Assembly: GCA_000182565.2 (NCBI GenBank)
Contig: KQ257453.1
Direction: 5' to 3' (one strand)
DNA: 64,000 nt
Source: Spizellomyces punctatus DAOM BR117
Lineage: Eukaryota
Made by a program: the position numbers and the translations under genes. Of this stretch, positions 21,201 to 63,936 are shown in pieces. Each line of letters begins with the position of its first letter. Position 1 is the first letter of the stretch. The notes beneath the pieces are model-generated. The model saw only the letters and a list, made by a program, of their open reading frames with translations. It was not told the DNA's origin and made no database searches.

Positions 21201-23036
21201 GGGTTGGCTGGTATCCGGTTTGTTTATTTTTCCTCTGCACCGGAACGTGAAAGTAAAGGTACGCTCCTTCCACAAACAGTTTTCGTCAGTCGTATCACAC
21301 CAAACTGATTTCATAAAAACAGCCTACGCCGAACGCCTTGGCCTCGAAATCGATTGGAACAGCTGCATTCTCCTATCACCCGACAATGGGTCCACACCAG
21401 GGTACCTTGAGCTTCATGACATGAAAGCCAGACTACCACGTGGTGTCGACAAAATCCGGGACCATATTGAGAATGTTGATGACGTCCCGTTGCATGTCTC
21501 GCTTTTTGCAGAGTGTAATTCATACTCTGTTCGTGAGATGGTTCGGATTTTTCAGGAGCATGGGGAAGTTGTTTGTTGTGTTGGGAGTTCATTGAATGAG
21601 ATGAATGTCGAGTGTTTTGCGTTGGTATGGTTTCTTTTCAATTTCGATGGGGTTTGGAGTTGGTTGTTTGGCTCATGTATTTTTTTTGTTTTTTGTGGTG
21701 CAGGCAGATATTAGTATCGCCATTGACCCTCTTAGTGTCCTCAAAGCTCGTAATCATGCTTCAACGGGTCCGTTATCCCCGTTGAATGTGGGAGCAGGGT
21801 TCACGTCTCTCCCATGTGCGTTCTCGTTACATAACGATACGAGTATATACAGTTTGAGCCAGATTATTAGGGAGGCGAGGACTATTGCTGATCATGGGCG
21901 ACAGGTACGGAGTTTTCCGTTTGCTGTTATTTGATGAATCAGGGTTTTTTGATACTTTTTTTCTAGGCAGTTGTCTTTTACCTCTCATCCCAAACCAGTT
22001 TATGTCTTATCATGATCCTGTCTTATTGTCTCCTCTTTCCCCCCATCTTCACTGGATACCAACTCTTTTGGTTGTTGTGGATCATTCTCCCGCCTTTATC
22101 TTTGTCGTTTTTGTTTTCTCCGCATGACCCGCGGGTGATGACTACGATGCCTGGTATGTGGGTTTTGACAGTAGTGTTGGTATCTCGAATCAATTGGAGG
22201 CTGAATGATGAAAAACAGTCAAGAATACACATCACCTGAAAGACCGGTGGAGATTTGCCGTATATTTTTTGATTCGGTTTTCCGTACCGGTTGTACTTTG
22301 TGTTGCTGTTTTCGCCATGTACGTCTTTTGTGCATTTACCTCAACTGTCGACTTGGTAATCGCTGATTTTACTATCACAGATCCTTGTCGGTATTTAAAC
22401 CTGATCAGCCCTCCGATTCAGTCTTTGGCGATTTTGGAATTTCGTCTTGGATGCATTGGAGTGATGGTGAGCAGTGGGCCTTACTGTATGCCCAAAACTG
22501 CACGCTTTTTGTGTGGGTGTTTTTAATGGGTGCGTTTCGTGTGGTTTGATTTATTACGCTTTTTGGATACGCCATCCTGAGTGAGGGGTTATAGTGTGTA
22601 TATCGGCAACATGTTTGCATCGTATCGCGCATCTCAAATCATTCCCCCCGTATCGGAATCGGGTGTGGGTTGGCAGTGCGGTTACGAGGTTTGTTGGTCC
22701 TTACCAAAGTCGCATGCTAGTAACTCACACTTCATTGTAGTCTTGTACTGCAAACTGCCTTTTTCGCCATTTCCATCGCTCCACGCGGCCCGTACTCTCT
22801 CTCCCTTCTCCCCTGGTGGCTGTTTGTCATTGTGTTTGTGGGAGGACCAGTGCTGGCCGTGGGAGTGCAGGAAGCTGTCAAGATTCATGATCGCAGAGAG
22901 TGGGAGAGGTTCCAAAAGAGGAGTAAACTGGAGTTTAATACAAAGCTGTGAGTAATTTATGGATTTCGGTCTTTGGGTGTGCGGCGTTGATGATTATTTT
23001 CGTTGAATTATTAGGGGGATGCACTCGCCATTATGA
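18261..23036 (+). CDS. TMEM94: TMEM94/KIAA0195-like P-type-ATPase-related membrane protein (many exons)
   Basis: TTVICAIDREGTIS (19831), KARLPRGVDKIRDHIENVDDVPLHVSLFAEC..EMVRIFQEHGEVVCCVGSSLN, QADISIAIDP, and spliced C-terminus QKRSKLEFNTKLGMHSPL*; start codon uncertain. Confidence 0.82.
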
Positions 23037-57979: not shown

Positions 57980-59303
57980 TCAAAGGGTTTTTAAATGCTC
58001 AATGAAAAAATTTGTAACTCTCCGCCACGCAAGATTAACGAGATCCTTGTCAAATCCACCTTCGTAGCCAAGCTCCTTGCGTTGCTGAAGCGACCACGGA
58101 AGATCATTCATGAAAGCGTGCTAGGGAACAGATATGGAAATTAAATTGAATGTTTCCGACACCTCATTGGAAAGGCAACAGAGTATACTAGAGACTCACC
58201 CCTTGGCCCGGGTAGAAAAAGACGCTTGCCTCCAATTTGTGGAATCCTTCCGCATGTCTTCCACCATGCTGCCTGATCACCTCCTCCCATTTCCTTTGCA
58301 CGGCACGAGCGGTCTCGGGATCGCTAAATCCTTTTTTGTTATCCTTTTCCCCAATATGTAGTTGGACGGGCGTGTAGAGTGGAATGGGAGTAATGTCGAT
58401 GAGAGACAAAGGAGGAATCCCGTAAAATGAAACGCATGCTGAAATTGTTGGTGGGTGTATGCTTTTATGCAGCTGTGGCTTGAAATTTCGGGTTTATTTA
58501 CCATTAAGTGGTCCGGGATTCTTGGTGGGCCCAATGCTGGCGGCTAGAGCGAGAGACAGAGCCCCACCCATGCTAGACGAGGAGGACTATTAGCATTGAA
58601 TGCGGCTGTTGAGTCAAGTATGTTACGCACCAAAATCCTATTGAACCAATTTTTCTGCTCAAGAAAAGTCATTCGTACAAAGTCTTGCATTTTTTGCAGT
58701 GTACAGCCGTGGGAACTGTACCTTTTACCATCCTTTCTCAAATCCTTGACCAATTTCGATAGCTCATCTATGGCTCCGGGCCAATCCAATTCGTCTCTTA
58801 GATGTGCCGCTTCCTGACAATCATTTTCGAGTATTCACCACATAGCATTGACGATGGATCACAAAACGACGTAGTATCTCTTACAGCGGCGTCGAGTGCT
58901 TGCTTCCCCCGATACAGATCAGGAACAATTGCGATTGCTCCAGTATCATTTGCAAGGTGTTGCGCGTGTGCTTTTATTTGCTCGTTGATGCCCCACCATT
59001 CCTTGCAGGACCAATGTATGTTAACAAAAGCAGTAAAGATATCGTCCCCTCCGCTGCATATAAAGAAGCACAATCGCAAGTCCTTACCTGCAAGACAATA
59101 ATAACTGGTTCAGGAACAAAAGAGCCTTCTGTATTGAGGTCGTGCTCGACTTCTCCTTGTGGTTGAAACTCGAGAACGGGAAGTGACGACTTGTGCAAAC
59201 GGGAACCGGCCGAAAACCAGCGTCCCTTTAGTGCTGGGTTTAGCAGAGGAGCGCGAGCGTGGAGGCCACGAAGGACTCTGAAGGGAGTTTGTAGGAAAGG
59301 CAT
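57980..59303 (-). CDS. Dienelactone hydrolase-family protein with mitochondrial-like presequence (multi-exon)
   Basis: IIVLQ|EWWGINEQIK, AIVPDLYRGK, GF|CMGGALSL, FYGIP, HAFMN. Confidence 0.88.
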
Positions 59304-59462
59304 GTCAGGCTACAAGCTTCTGTTGGGGGAGTATTCAGATGAAAAGGTCTAAAGTTGAAGGACCAAGGCGAGCATGACTCATATCACGTCACGCGTTGTC
59401 GACACCAGCCAGTGCGAACAAGTAGCCAAGAAAACTGTTGTTGGATTCCAGAGGGAGCAACA

Positions 59463-59492
59463 TAGTGCGGAGCCGATGGGTATTGGCACTAG
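59463..59492 (+). repeat. Left terminal inverted repeat
   Basis: tagtgcggagccgatgggtattggcactag is the exact reverse complement of 61557-61586. Confidence 0.97.
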
Positions 59493-59568
59493 TACAAAGA
59501 TTCCAACCAATTTAATCATAATTTTACTCGATTTAGACTCATGAACTATGGTTTGATCCAAAAGATCC

Positions 59569-59575
59569 TATATAA
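59569..59575 (+). promoter_or_regulatory. Candidate TATA box for the Fanzor transcript
   Basis: TATATAA about 50 nt upstream of ATG 59627, inside the element's left end. Confidence 0.4.
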
Positions 59576-59626
59576 GTTGTCGTGCCCATTTTCCCAGGCT
59601 TTCATCTTTTTCCACAGATATCATCA

Positions 59627-61492
59627 ATGCCACCAAAAAAGAAGCAAAAACTCGAAAAACTCGACAAACCTACTTGCTTACATACCTATAACAAGACTTC
59701 CTTTGCAAAAGCTTTCCTGCCAAACTACCACCAACGGCTTCTAGATTACATCGCCATCATCCATGAACTCGCTTCCCACGCTCTCAAATTCTACATCCTA
59801 TCTGCACCATCCTTTCCCACGGTAGATCAAGATACAATCGAAGCGATTCTCTATCTTCTCAACAAAGGAGAGGCTTGGCATCCAAGAAAGGAAGCAAAGA
59901 AGGCATGGCGGGATTGTTTGCTGCCATATGTTTAACGGTACTGCCAAATCGTCGGCTTCGTTCACCCAAATCTACGAGGCGAGCAGCAATCAGTCAATTA
60001 CCTGACAGCAAGTATGATGACAAACCTGAAGGTCAACGTTCAAGAGCATTTCATGCAGATGCTCCTTCGGTATATCAATCTGCGGCTCGACGTGAAGGGA
60101 CAGAAGCAGCGACTGCCACTGAAAAGCGATGCGCGGAAAGCTTTCTTTACTCGACTACGCTACTTAAAGTCAGTTTTTCTTTTTGATACTGTACCTGAGT
60201 TGCTGGATTTAACACCATTGGAGAGCGAGGTTCTTGAAGAGATTTGGTCGCTCGATCTGCCTTTTCTTGTTGACAATCCACTCGCCTTCGCAGTTGTCGT
60301 GGATCCAATGTCCTTTTTCCCTGCTTACTGTCGGTTGTCAAGCCTATATGAAAAGCATGGATTTCGACGGTTCAGTGCAATCCCACTTCGCCGCTCCCTC
60401 ATCCAAAGCCACATTCGTATCGACACGGTTATTCTGCACCAGCATATCCTCTGCATCACCCGCCAAGAAGCAGAAGCCGTAGCGAAGGTCGATTTATGGT
60501 TGCGCGTCTGTAATCTGCAGAACAAGGCTTTTAGATCTCGTCATGGAATGTGTTTTGAAGGCTCGATCACGACGGACGGAACCTCGATGTCTGTATACCT
60601 AAAGCACCCAGACGCAGACAAGTATGGAAAGCGCGGAGCGAGAAAGTCAGCAAAGACTCTAGAAGCTGAGGTGAAGGCAGTATATGTGGAGAACAACTTG
60701 CCTGCTTGTCGAGCAGCAGAAAATGTCATCGTTATCGACCCAAACAAGCGCGACATTCTCTACTGCCAAGACAGCAATGGTACGACGTTCCGCTACACCG
60801 CCAATCAACGCTGCAAGGAGACAGGTAGCCGCCGAATTGCAAAGAGACGAGAAGCAATGAAAGCCGGCGGCATTGACCTCATAGAATCACGTATCCCAAG
60901 CCACAAGACGATGAACCTCATGGACTTTACTCGCTACCTTCTCGTTCGTCGCGCAGATTCGGATCGTCGCAAGGAATTCTACTCCCACCCTGCCCACACA
61001 CGGTGGAAGTGGCATGCATTTATAAACCGTCAGAAGAGTGAATCGAACCTCATATCCAACTTGCGCAACAAGTTTGGGAACTTTACCATTGTGATGGGAG
61101 ATTGGAGCGATGCCGGTCGAACTGCGAGATTTCAGACCTCATCCAAGACAAAAGGCTGGCGCACCCTCTTTAAGCGCAACCGCATTGATTGTTTCCTTCT
61201 CGACGAGTACAAGACCTCATCTGTCTGCCCTCACTGTTCCTCTGACGTTGAAAAAGGTTTCAAAACACGACCTCATTCAAGACCTTATCGACGACGAGAA
61301 GGCAAGATTGAAAAAGTCCACGGATTGCTGGGTTGTACCAACCCTAACTGTTTGCAGCAAGCCTGGACGATGCGCTACTGGAATCGAGATACGCTGTCAA
61401 CCTGCAATATGGTAACGATCGTGCAATCAATGTTGGATGGACACGGTAGACCAGAGGTGTTCAGCAGGAGGAGTGTTCCAGCTGTAGCGTAG
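59627..61492 (+). pseudogene. Fanzor1 RNA-guided endonuclease (TnpB/Cas12 family, SpuFz1-like), 621 codons with one in-frame TAA at 59933-59935
   Basis: MPPKKKQKL NLS; frame continues past TAA (YV*RYCQIVGF...SMMTNLK) into the 492-aa ORF; RuvC I VIDPN (D 60737), RuvC II LDEYKTS (E 61205), Zn finger CPHC...CTNPNC, RuvC III NRD (D 61388); closely resembles SpuFz1 as I recall it. Confidence 0.93.
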
Positions 61493-61511
61493 CGTAGATT
61501 GGTTAGATTAG

Positions 61512-61601
61512 GTTTTCCGAGCCGGTTGTCGCGCGGTTCAATCCCTGGTGCGGGTGCTAGTGCCAATACCCATCGGCTCCGCACTACATATGAAGAGGGC
61601 A
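61512..61601 (+). ncRNA. Fanzor omegaRNA: 75-nt scaffold (61512-61586) plus about 15-nt guide read from flanking DNA (61587-61601)
   Basis: Starts 19 nt after the Fanzor stop and ends at the right TIR; gagccgg (61519-25) pairs with tcggctc (61573-79); inner hairpin gggtg..taccc (61552-71); matches the SpuFz1 omegaRNA layout from memory; exact ends inferred. Confidence 0.85.
61557..61586 (-). repeat. Right terminal inverted repeat (overlaps the 3' end of the omegaRNA scaffold)
   Basis: ctagtgccaatacccatcggctccgcacta. Confidence 0.97.
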
Positions 61602-61695
61602 GGCAAAATAACTACTGTTCGGTAACACTCCTACTTCTACATTACGTGTTCACTAAAATTAAAACAGCCTTCCGGACCAGCCGGTGGACTGCTAC

Positions 61696-63936
61696 TTACG
61701 CACCCAAGACCCATTTTCCAATGAACGCATCGAATCCCATATCATTGACAACAATATCACCATACAACTCTCGTAACTCTAGACTTGTAAAGCTCTCCAA
61801 GGCTGCTCTGTGTCTTGATGTAGATACAGAAGGTCTCGGCGTTGACAGCTTTGAGTACGCGCAATCATCACTATCTTCCACATCCGAGCTTGGCTCCGCA
61901 AGCCGTAGGACAGAACCCTTGAGCTCGCTGAATCGATGAACGGATCGAGCATACTCCACTGCGGCCTGAAATGTTGCAAAGAGGTTTAGATCAAAAGCTG
62001 TTCATCAACCATTTGGAGGAAAACCATACCTCGGGGGTCAAGTCTCTGACAGAAACATTTCCCACTGATGCCTGACCAAAGCTGTCCACACTGATATTGT
62101 TTGTCACCCACCAGCGGGGTAAGTGGCTATTTTTACGACGAATCCAAAGGGTTTTCCACCCGCCATCGGTGTCCTCTCCACCGGTTTCAGTCTTTCCTCG
62201 ACGAATGGAGAAGATCCTTTCAATGGGACTGACGCCAGAGTTTCCTCGTCCATTTGCTCGTAATCTCGTCAATGGCCTCACTGGAGCCACCGACTCCCGT
62301 TTTTGACGTGGTCCATCATCATCCGCTACTCGGGCAACATTGCGAACGCTGTTTTGCTTGAGCCAGCGGACCGGAGCGGAAAAGACTCGTTTAATCTTTC
62401 CCCAATTGATCAACGTTTTGCGATTTGCCTTTTGCTGTTGCTCCTCCCCATACTTAAAATCTCGGGGGATCGTAGAATGTCTATGGGATTGGCTGAGCGT
62501 CGTGCCGCCAGCGGCAGGGGCGGAAGCACCTTCAGCGACCGCTACCCAATTACGAGCAGTCCATAGAGCTTCCTCCAGTAGAACTTCTACTGGTGTCACT
62601 GTTGAGGGACAGGACTCCCTTGTTGGGGTTAACGGCTGAGGACTATCCCGGTTGGGTGCGTAATTCTCTAGCCATGCATCAGAGTCAAGAAACGGAATCT
62701 CCAGTGGTATGCGAGGCAAGGACGGAAGGACATATTTGTTGTAACCGGTGACTTCATATAGTTCAGGTTTTGTGTCATTCTGTAGAGGTGTCCGATTCGG
62801 AAGTTCAGGCGGCGATTCATTAGGTATGTTCAACTCCATGGTCGTGAATCTGGAGTCCACAGAAAGATGAGCCATGTACGTTCGTGCAGTCAGCAAGGAC
62901 GATTCCGTTTGTGCTGTCTGAATGCCTTTATCCACTTTATCTATATGGTCTGCATTCTCGACAGTACTGGCTGCAGCAAGCTTTTTTGCTGCTGGGTCGG
63001 TAGTACTGAAGTTTGTGGCGTCTTCTTTGGCGCTGTCGTTTTCGATATCAGTATTTGATGGTGGTCTCGACGCTTCGACATGCTCAGAGTCTTTCCTTAG
63101 TAGGTGAACTGGTAGCAGAGGCGTCTGATCTTTCGCAAAAATTGCCGCATGAATCACACTATCGTCGGGCAGTAGTAACTCTTCCTGCTCCATGTCTAAT
63201 TCAGATGCTATAGCCGTCGTTTCTTCCGGTGCAGGATCGACCAGGGGCGCATGTCTGTTACGCTTATGATCAGAATGCCTACGAGTAAGAGTCACCGGCA
63301 TGCTGTCGACGTTAACTGCATCTAAGAGATATGAGATAGAGTCATCAGTTAAGCAGTACATGAAGCACTTACCAGGAAGCGACGCGTCTTGTTCCGCACT
63401 TGCTATCATTATCCCATGGGTTTTTATGGAAGATTGAAGCTCTTCAACGACTGGTGCCCCATATTCATCTAGCACATCACACGCAGTCAAGAACGAATCT
63501 GCGGGACTCGTGCCATAAGGGAGCACGTCCAAGTCCTTAGCACACTGCTGGAGGTGCAGCGCTTTATCAGAAATAATATCCTGCTCAGTGCCTGGGTATT
63601 GGATATTTTCATTGACATGAGTCCTCTCGGTGGAGGTTGTGGAAAGTATGGTCACATCAGCCGCGGAATTGGTACCGTAGGAGGATTGGCCTTGAGCAAC
63701 TCGAGTAAGCACACGGGAGGACTACACAGTCTTGAATGACGTTCACGAAACTTACTTGATCGCAACCAGGTGACGTCCGTGTCAATATGCAGTCCTTTTT
63801 TATTAACCACATTGACAGGACTGTCGCCAATATAAACAATGCCTTCTTGAAATTCATGATCCTCTTCTACGTCGACGGGATCATTTGAGAGCTCCAACTT
63901 GGAGTCTTTTCTGGTGGCCAGCATCGTAGTTGCCAT
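61696..63936 (-). CDS. Hypothetical low-complexity protein (about 3 exons)
   Basis: 573-aa ORF plus flanking ORFs linked by plausible GT..AG introns (donors near 63756 and 62029); no recognised domain. Confidence 0.55.

Follow-up and report, generated by a model that had tools for sequence, protein, structure and literature searches.

A full-length SPu-1 element of Spizellomyces punctatus with a nonsense-interrupted SpuFz1 paralogue and a canonical omegaRNA scaffold

The SPu-1 family and its copy in the window

Fanzor was first found in the SPu-1 family of Spizellomyces punctatus DAOM BR117, the family from which SpuFz1 was characterised and which is the prototype of the Fanzor1 group. Bao and Jurka (2013; PMC3627910) describe SPu-1 elements as about 2,100 bp long, with 33-bp terminal inverted repeats and TA target-site duplications given as putative; 17 full-length copies are counted, 9 of them with intact open reading frames (ORFs). 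Saito et al. (2023; PMC10432273) describe the Spu-1 locus as about 2.1 kb in length, with 30-nt inverted repeats, a single ORF, no transposase within the repeats and a conserved CA 5' of the left one. The target-adjacent motif (TAM) of SpuFz1 is 5'-CATA, and any change of a TAM base abolishes cleavage; the omegaRNA is composed of a 75-nt scaffold and a 14–15-nt guide (PMC10432273), and an RNA of 88–90 nt is expected of a member of the family. The same authors report, for S. punctatus, 42 Fz loci, 19 of which are full-length, along with 134 protein-less ghost loci; Spu-1 proteins are about 82% identical to one another (PMC10432273). Further SpuFz1 structures, 9CEU-9CEZ, go with a Cell 2024 paper (PMC11423790). 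Here, a member of this family is described, located at positions 59463-61586 of a 64-kb stretch of S. punctatus DAOM BR117 DNA (contig KQ257453.1), indicated below as the window.

The element, 2124 bp long, is interpreted, with a probability of roughly 0.92, as a full-length SPu-1 copy, containing a nonsense-inactivated paralogue of SpuFz1 and an intact, canonical omegaRNA scaffold, the guide being derived from the right flank. Every feature of it falls within the published descriptions; nothing contradicts SPu-1/SpuFz1 identity, and the locus is probably listed among the 42 of Saito et al. The features at its ends are the following:

59461-59464, + strand: left junction CATA, made of the flanking CA and of the TA opening the repeat (or of a TA target-site duplication)
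59463-59492, + strand: left inverted repeat, 30 nt perfect, extending over 33 nt to 59495 with one mismatch
61557-61586, - strand: right inverted repeat, 30 nt perfect, corresponding to the 3' strand of omegaRNA stem 2

A repeat search over 58500-62500 produced one strong inverted pair, with arms at 59463-59495 and 61554-61586 (33 nt, 97% complementarity, spacing 2058 nt). The outer 30 nt are identical in both arms: two exact matches are found in the window, while at least two matches were found in 0 of 100 shuffles. The perfect 30-bp repeats reported in the initial annotation are thus borne out, with 0 mismatches. By direct reading, CA is present at 59461-59462 and TA at both element ends (59463-59464 and 61585-61586), and the left junction reproduces the published SpuFz1 TAM; the right junction reads ACTA, followed by CATATGAAGAGGGCA. 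The first four flanking bases on the right, 61587-61590, are themselves CATA, resulting in the layout CA-TA-[element]-TA-CATA: this may reflect a preference for insertion into CATA/TATG-like sequences, or chance.

The Fanzor frame is the only long ORF between the repeats, and no transposase is encoded in the element. Its mobility would therefore depend on something elsewhere. A Tc1/mariner DNA transposon was considered, as terminal inverted repeats and TA are present, and discarded: the only long ORF is that of the Fanzor, and no DDE transposase is found. The prokaryotic TnpB of IS200/IS605 elements, such as ISDra2, is alike in featuring a nuclease with RuvC and zinc-finger parts, an RNA from the right end with a guide taken from the flank, and a TAM at the left junction. 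The window element differs in having no TnpA, in carrying terminal inverted repeats and a putative TA target-site duplication instead of subterminal hairpins, and in its enlarged REC domain; moreover, no pseudoknot is present in the Fanzor omegaRNA (PMC10432273). An IS200/IS605 TnpB element was rejected on the basis of the lack of a Pfam OrfB_Zn_ribbon match at E <= 1 and of the single long ORF between the repeats. A protein of this type works in the manner of TnpB, of which it is the eukaryotic derivative.

Both the kind of element and its family are already known, the family having been defined in this same genome, and the copy adds little beyond annotation: its significance is small, since family, structure, omegaRNA, TAM and copy census have all been published (Bao and Jurka 2013; Saito et al. 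2023).

The interrupted Fanzor frame

The coding features, all on the + strand, are the following:

59627-61492, + strand: frame of the Fanzor1 protein (SpuFz1 paralogue), 621 codons plus terminal TAG, with one interruption
59630-59653, + strand: PPKKKQKL, basic motif resembling a nuclear localisation signal, residues 2-9, common to the paralogues
59933-59935, + strand: in-frame TAA, codon 103, at the position of SpuFz1 Q112
60014-61492, + strand: residual 492-aa ORF, beginning at an internal Met, identical to P0006 in the protein collection
60737-60745, + strand: D371-P-N373, RuvC metal ligands (SpuFz1 D383, N385)
61205-61207, + strand: E527, RuvC (SpuFz1 E541)
61226-61237, + strand: CPHC, residues 534-537, first half of the CCCC zinc finger (SpuFz1 C548/C551)
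61334-61351, + strand: CTNPNC, residues 570-575, second half of the zinc finger (SpuFz1 C586/C591)
61388-61390, + strand: D588, RuvC (SpuFz1 D606)

The frame aligns to SpuFz1 end to end. When the stop is read as X, residues 2-621 match residues 396-1032 of 8gkh_P, the SpuFz1 chain of PDB entry 8GKH, with 1224 bits: this range is all of SpuFz1 after the MBP tag. The 492-aa ORF by itself matches the same chain with E = 1.1e-294, the Parasitella Fanzor1 chain with E = 5.4e-50 and the Guillardia Fanzor1 chain with E = 3.2e-07. The initial annotation, which placed a Fanzor1 and omegaRNA module of the SpuFz1/SPu-1 family within the inverted repeats, is supported.

The protein of 8GKH is P0003 (SPPG_07727, 638 aa), which fits 53 of 53 published residue names. 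The window frame is identical to it at 551 of 640 positions by BLASTP (86%, 21 gapped columns), or at 550 of the 618 ungapped columns. The 621 codons, compared to 638, result from 20 missing residues and one extra, distributed in short in-frame gaps; several of these are common to other paralogues, while a 3-aa loss after residue 50 is found only in the window copy among the rows shown. The copy had been described as shorter than SpuFz1 and diverged from it, and so it is; its implied novelty as an uncharacterised paralogue is not supported: 42 Fz loci have already been counted (PMC10432273) and the divergence lies within the approximately 82% identity of the family.

The protein collection contains 56 relatives at E <= 1e-10, 16 of them named S. 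punctatus DAOM BR117. The nearest paralogue is SPPG_00355 (P0002, 627 aa), identical at 561 of 614 positions (91%). In a maximum-likelihood tree of 18 rows, SPPG_00355 and the window copy form a sister pair (support 99/96) within the S. punctatus clade, and the terminal branch of the window copy, 0.037, is the shortest of all rows. A search of a local copy of Pfam at E <= 1 gave a single match for the window copy, due to chance, and none for SpuFz1 itself: the absence of a RuvC/TnpB profile match, which had been named as a check, is therefore uninformative here. A precomputed label, PF26935.1, is attached to 56 of the 56 relatives.

Four of these relatives, P0010, P0011, P0018 and P0022, are Fanzor1 proteins 55-76% identical to the window copy. 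P0010, P0018 and P0022 lie on contigs of about 2.1-2.6 kb, P0011 on a contig of 201,895 nt. They have the appearance of entire SPu-1-like elements, belonging to relatives of S. punctatus, on which a covariation analysis of the omegaRNA could be based.

In agreement with the initial annotation, a single frame features a basic motif, a RuvC D/E/D triad and a zinc finger, all recognised by their residues. The classical nuclear localisation pattern is K-K/R-X-K/R, which PPKKKQKL fits, and the motif is accordingly marked as a putative nuclear localisation signal. The roles of the other residues were taken from section 10 of PMC10432273. The metal-binding D383, N385, E541 and D606 are kept as D371, N373, E527 and D588. 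A CCCC zinc finger is present in the SpuFz1 NUC domain (PMC10432273, Extended Data Fig. 10 legend): in the family alignment, made of 17 rows, C586 is invariant, while C548, C551 and C591 (SpuFz1 numbering) are nearly so. Six of six TAM-reading residues (R96, Q129, Q130, N133, R291, Y345) are retained in the full frame, and so are 44 of the 48 residues published as catalytic or as contacting nucleic acid. The four contact changes are W570Y, loss of S598, R550H and M607T: all but R550H are also found in paralogues; at R550, His is seen only in the window copy, and one paralogue has Cys. Of the five positions at which Saito et al. raised activity, T513 is unchanged, three are substituted (D300V, C310Q, D487N) and E498 is absent. 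The natural variants W570Y, R550H, M607T, D300V, C310Q and D487N, together with the missing E498, could be useful for engineering.

The interruption is a TAA at codon 103, which splits the frame, in a listing of ORFs made with genetic code table 1, into pieces of 102 and 492 aa. At this position the nearest paralogue, SPPG_00355, compared as a protein, has Gln. Among the rows shown, SpuFz1 and five further paralogues carry Gln, P0007 Cys and P0010 Glu. Paralogue reads and contigs carry C at 59933, and the lesion is therefore a single C-to-T change. An intron including the TAA is excluded, since the residues on either side are colinear with SpuFz1, with no gap. The initial annotation had noticed the TAA and still described the system as complete: this cannot be maintained, as the stop, located at the Gln112 position, breaks the nuclease frame.

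The 492-aa remainder begins past the residues that correspond to SpuFz1 H21, T22, K25, R96, Q129, Q130 and N133, and so is devoid of 7 of the 10 named N-terminal residues checked, belonging to WED or involved in TAM reading; for this reason it is predicted to be unable to read a TAM. An uninterrupted ORF, expected of an active member, is not found, and the copy, judged on its reading frame, is a pseudogene member of the SpuFz1/SPu-1 family rather than an active one. Private changes were counted over 11 of the 22 aligned S. punctatus rows, chosen as the longest. Of the 319 columns that are invariant in the others, the window copy carries such changes in 4 (1.3%); the frequency is 1.2-2.6% for nine of the ten other copies (1.9% for SpuFz1), while one gene model reaches 8.0%. 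The small number of private changes, the short branch and the perfect repeats mark the copy as a young pseudogene with one lesion; no other decay was seen. For the public 492-aa product, a more fitting description is the tail of a SpuFz1 paralogue interrupted by a nonsense codon.

The omegaRNA scaffold and its predicted guide

The non-coding features at the right end are the following:

61512-61586, + strand: 75-nt omegaRNA scaffold, beginning 19 nt past the terminal TAG, its last base being the last base of the right repeat
61587-61601, + strand: predicted 15-nt guide CATATGAAGAGGGCA, from the right flank; in the occupied site ACTA, instead of CATA, stands before it

The end coordinate 61601 corresponds to the scaffold end plus a 15-nt guide. 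A structured 75-nt segment, ending exactly at the element boundary, had been proposed from the start, and is confirmed by comparison with the published omegaRNA. The nucleotides reported for the scaffold are U5, C6, C7, U16, G17, U18, C19, G20, G22, A29, C32, C34, U35, G37, C40, G70, A72 and A75 (PMC10432273): numbering from 61512, 18 of 18 match, compared to 2-7 of 18 in twelve registers shifted by 1-6 nt. The minimum-energy fold contains a first stem-loop at nucleotides 8-28, an unpaired stretch from A29 to C34, and stem 2 at nucleotides 35-75, with an 8-nt loop. This is the published architecture, with its two stems and 6-nt linker, and the loop has the 8 nt of the canonical scaffold, not the form of the ghost one.

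At -27.4 kcal/mol, this fold has z = -1.82, its energy being reached by 6 of 200 shuffles; when the 15-nt flank is added, z becomes -0.69 (46 of 200). Given these z values, folding energy alone is weak support for an omegaRNA, whereas identity to the published one is strong support. No omegaRNA family was matched in Rfam, where the only hit, at chance level, was to snoR101 (19.5 bits, gathering score 40, E = 0.96), within the ORF but on the other strand.

Relative to the window scaffold, reads of other copies show G>A at 61521, the loss of 1 nt at 61533 (24 of 80 reads) and T>C / C>T at 61573/61574. These differences are natural variation among the omegaRNAs of the family, located in the first stem-loop and in stem 2, where they affect the dispensable distal portion.

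With up to 2 mismatches allowed, the predicted guide CATATGAAGAGGGCA has no second match in the window. According to the published mechanism, the scaffold and 14-15 nt of flank would make up an RNA of about 90 nt and guide an intact SpuFz1 paralogue to CATA followed by a guide match. Such a combination would exist only at the empty site, made of CA, one TA and the right flank, which would be cleavable. The occupied site, where ACTA stands ahead of the guide match, would be spared, because any TAM base change abolishes SpuFz1 cleavage (PMC10432273). As its own protein is truncated, the locus would contribute at most an omegaRNA used in trans, as published for the protein-less ghost loci.

In comparison with SpuFz1 (SPPG_07727, 8GKH), the window copy shares genome, element family and an end-to-end colinear protein, with the D/N/E/D metal site, the CCCC finger and the TAM-reading residues, as well as 30-nt inverted repeats with CA upstream, the 75-nt scaffold and CATA at the left. 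It differs by the TAA at the Gln112 codon, by its length of 621 instead of 638 codons, by the four contact changes and by the guide, which is another one because the flank differs. Ghost Spu-1 loci are alike in that both can supply an omegaRNA without a working nuclease. Ghost loci, however, measure about 550 nt, with inverted repeats differing at seven positions and a 3-nt bulge in stem 2 (PMC10432273), while the window copy is full length, with repeats of the Fz type and an 8-nt loop in stem 2.

Transcription, alternative explanations and surroundings

Transcription was evaluated on run X8, composed of raw RNA reads from an ordinary cDNA library (not small-RNA), about 6% of which was read. 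Of the 1320 reads placed, 1260 fit only partly; the loose end after 59725, for instance, encodes the two extra residues of other copies. Such loose ends show that most X8 reads stem from ghost loci or paralogues. High depth is found over the left end (59464-59873) and in the bin containing the omegaRNA (61514-61595), with values of 57.6 and 17.4. At 59933, the T of the window is found in 2 of 5 reads, C in the other 3. Transcription of the SPu-1 family is thus shown, and a second data set contains the T allele. From runs X10 and X9 nothing could be placed, a result with no weight in either direction.

It may be proposed, tentatively and at clearly less than even odds, that the broken copy is a natural intermediate between protein-coding Spu-1 and ghost loci: its omegaRNA, with guide CAUAUGAAGAGGGCA, would be produced by read-through of the element transcript, and intact SpuFz1 paralogues would take it up in trans, the insertion being kept protected or homed in spite of the loss of its own nuclease. 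If so, the locus would show how ghost loci arise, and that what persists is the guide repertoire rather than the protein copy. Being young, with a single lesion and a canonical omegaRNA, it is a convenient natural case for the question whether broken copies still provide guides for intact paralogues. Several data weigh against such a function. Depth is 1.5 or less over the ORF body (59956-61185) at 97% likeness, for which reason the window copy is perhaps barely transcribed, and only 1.3/4.8 in the first flank bin (61596-61677). In the portion of the cDNA run that was read, no position was found at which many molecules begin or end, nor any omegaRNA read specific to the locus.

Among the rival explanations, the one given most weight is an inert relic, in which neither the protein nor the omegaRNA of the window copy acts, and the perfect ends reflect youth only: it is given a substantial chance, not far below one half. 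The very low depth over the ORF body and the lack of locus-specific right-junction reads in X8 speak for it, and copy decay is the norm, 8 of the 17 full-length copies having broken ORFs according to Bao and Jurka (PMC3627910). It is countered by the match of the scaffold with the published one at all the 18 positions checked, and by the omegaRNAs of protein-less ghost loci, which work with SpuFz1 (PMC10432273): taken together, these indicate that an omegaRNA from the window locus, if transcribed, should be usable.

It is much less probable that the copy is a fully active, autonomous Fanzor1, making a 621-aa nuclease, with the TAA explained either by a multi-copy family having been misassembled or collapsed, or by an allele that is not fixed in the strain. 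The rest of the frame is intact, the X8 reads at 59933 are divided, and the X2 contigs carry only C there (depth 28.4/28.4), a result against the interpretation of the copy as nonsense-inactivated, for which the TAA stands in the assembly and in the two X8 reads. The X2 contigs cover both unique flanks without difference, at depths of 2.8 and 5.4; the C-bearing ones, whose depth is at the level of the family (11-37), probably come from paralogues, and contigs also drop rare variants. In addition, for this locus the public protein collection has only the 492-aa product, P0006.

A functional shortened nuclease or regulator, such as an omegaRNA-binding competitor, encoded by the 492-aa ORF is the most improbable explanation, with hardly any weight: although the residues of RuvC and of the zinc finger (NUC) are retained, most omegaRNA contacts lie in the WED, RuvC and NUC parts and this product is the one on record, the loss of H21, T22 and K25 (WED, first heteroduplex pair) and of the TAM readers R96, Q129, Q130 and N133 would make guided cleavage very unlikely, considering the strict TAM requirement of SpuFz1 (PMC10432273), and the frame 5' of the TAA, still perfectly colinear with the paralogues, indicates a recent accident, not a new start. 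The nonsense-inactivated SPu-1 copy with an intact scaffold is the preferred interpretation.

As to the surroundings, no second copy or ghost element was found within the window when the element was compared to it by blastn, which returned the element itself, its own pair of inverted repeats and one 37-nt match; tblastn with SpuFz1 against the window retrieved this locus only. The 37-nt stretch, at 22259-22294, resembles the beginning of the omegaRNA region (GGTTTTCCG..CCGGTTGT) with 81% identity and E = 0.033. It was considered as a second copy or ghost element and judged a chance match, since by eye neither an inverted repeat nor a stem 2 adjoins it. The G+C content is 47.8% in the element and in the window alike, so that the element shows no compositional contrast. 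The window contains 100 N, corresponding to an assembly gap. An ORF of 472 aa at 61991-63409 (- strand), matching nothing in the local copy of Pfam, converges on the element and ends about 400 bp from the right repeat. One further feature was picked out within the element by reading:

59569-59576, + strand: possible TATA box, TATATAAG, 51 nt 5' of the ATG

The same motif is present in the loose-end consensus from a paralogue contig.

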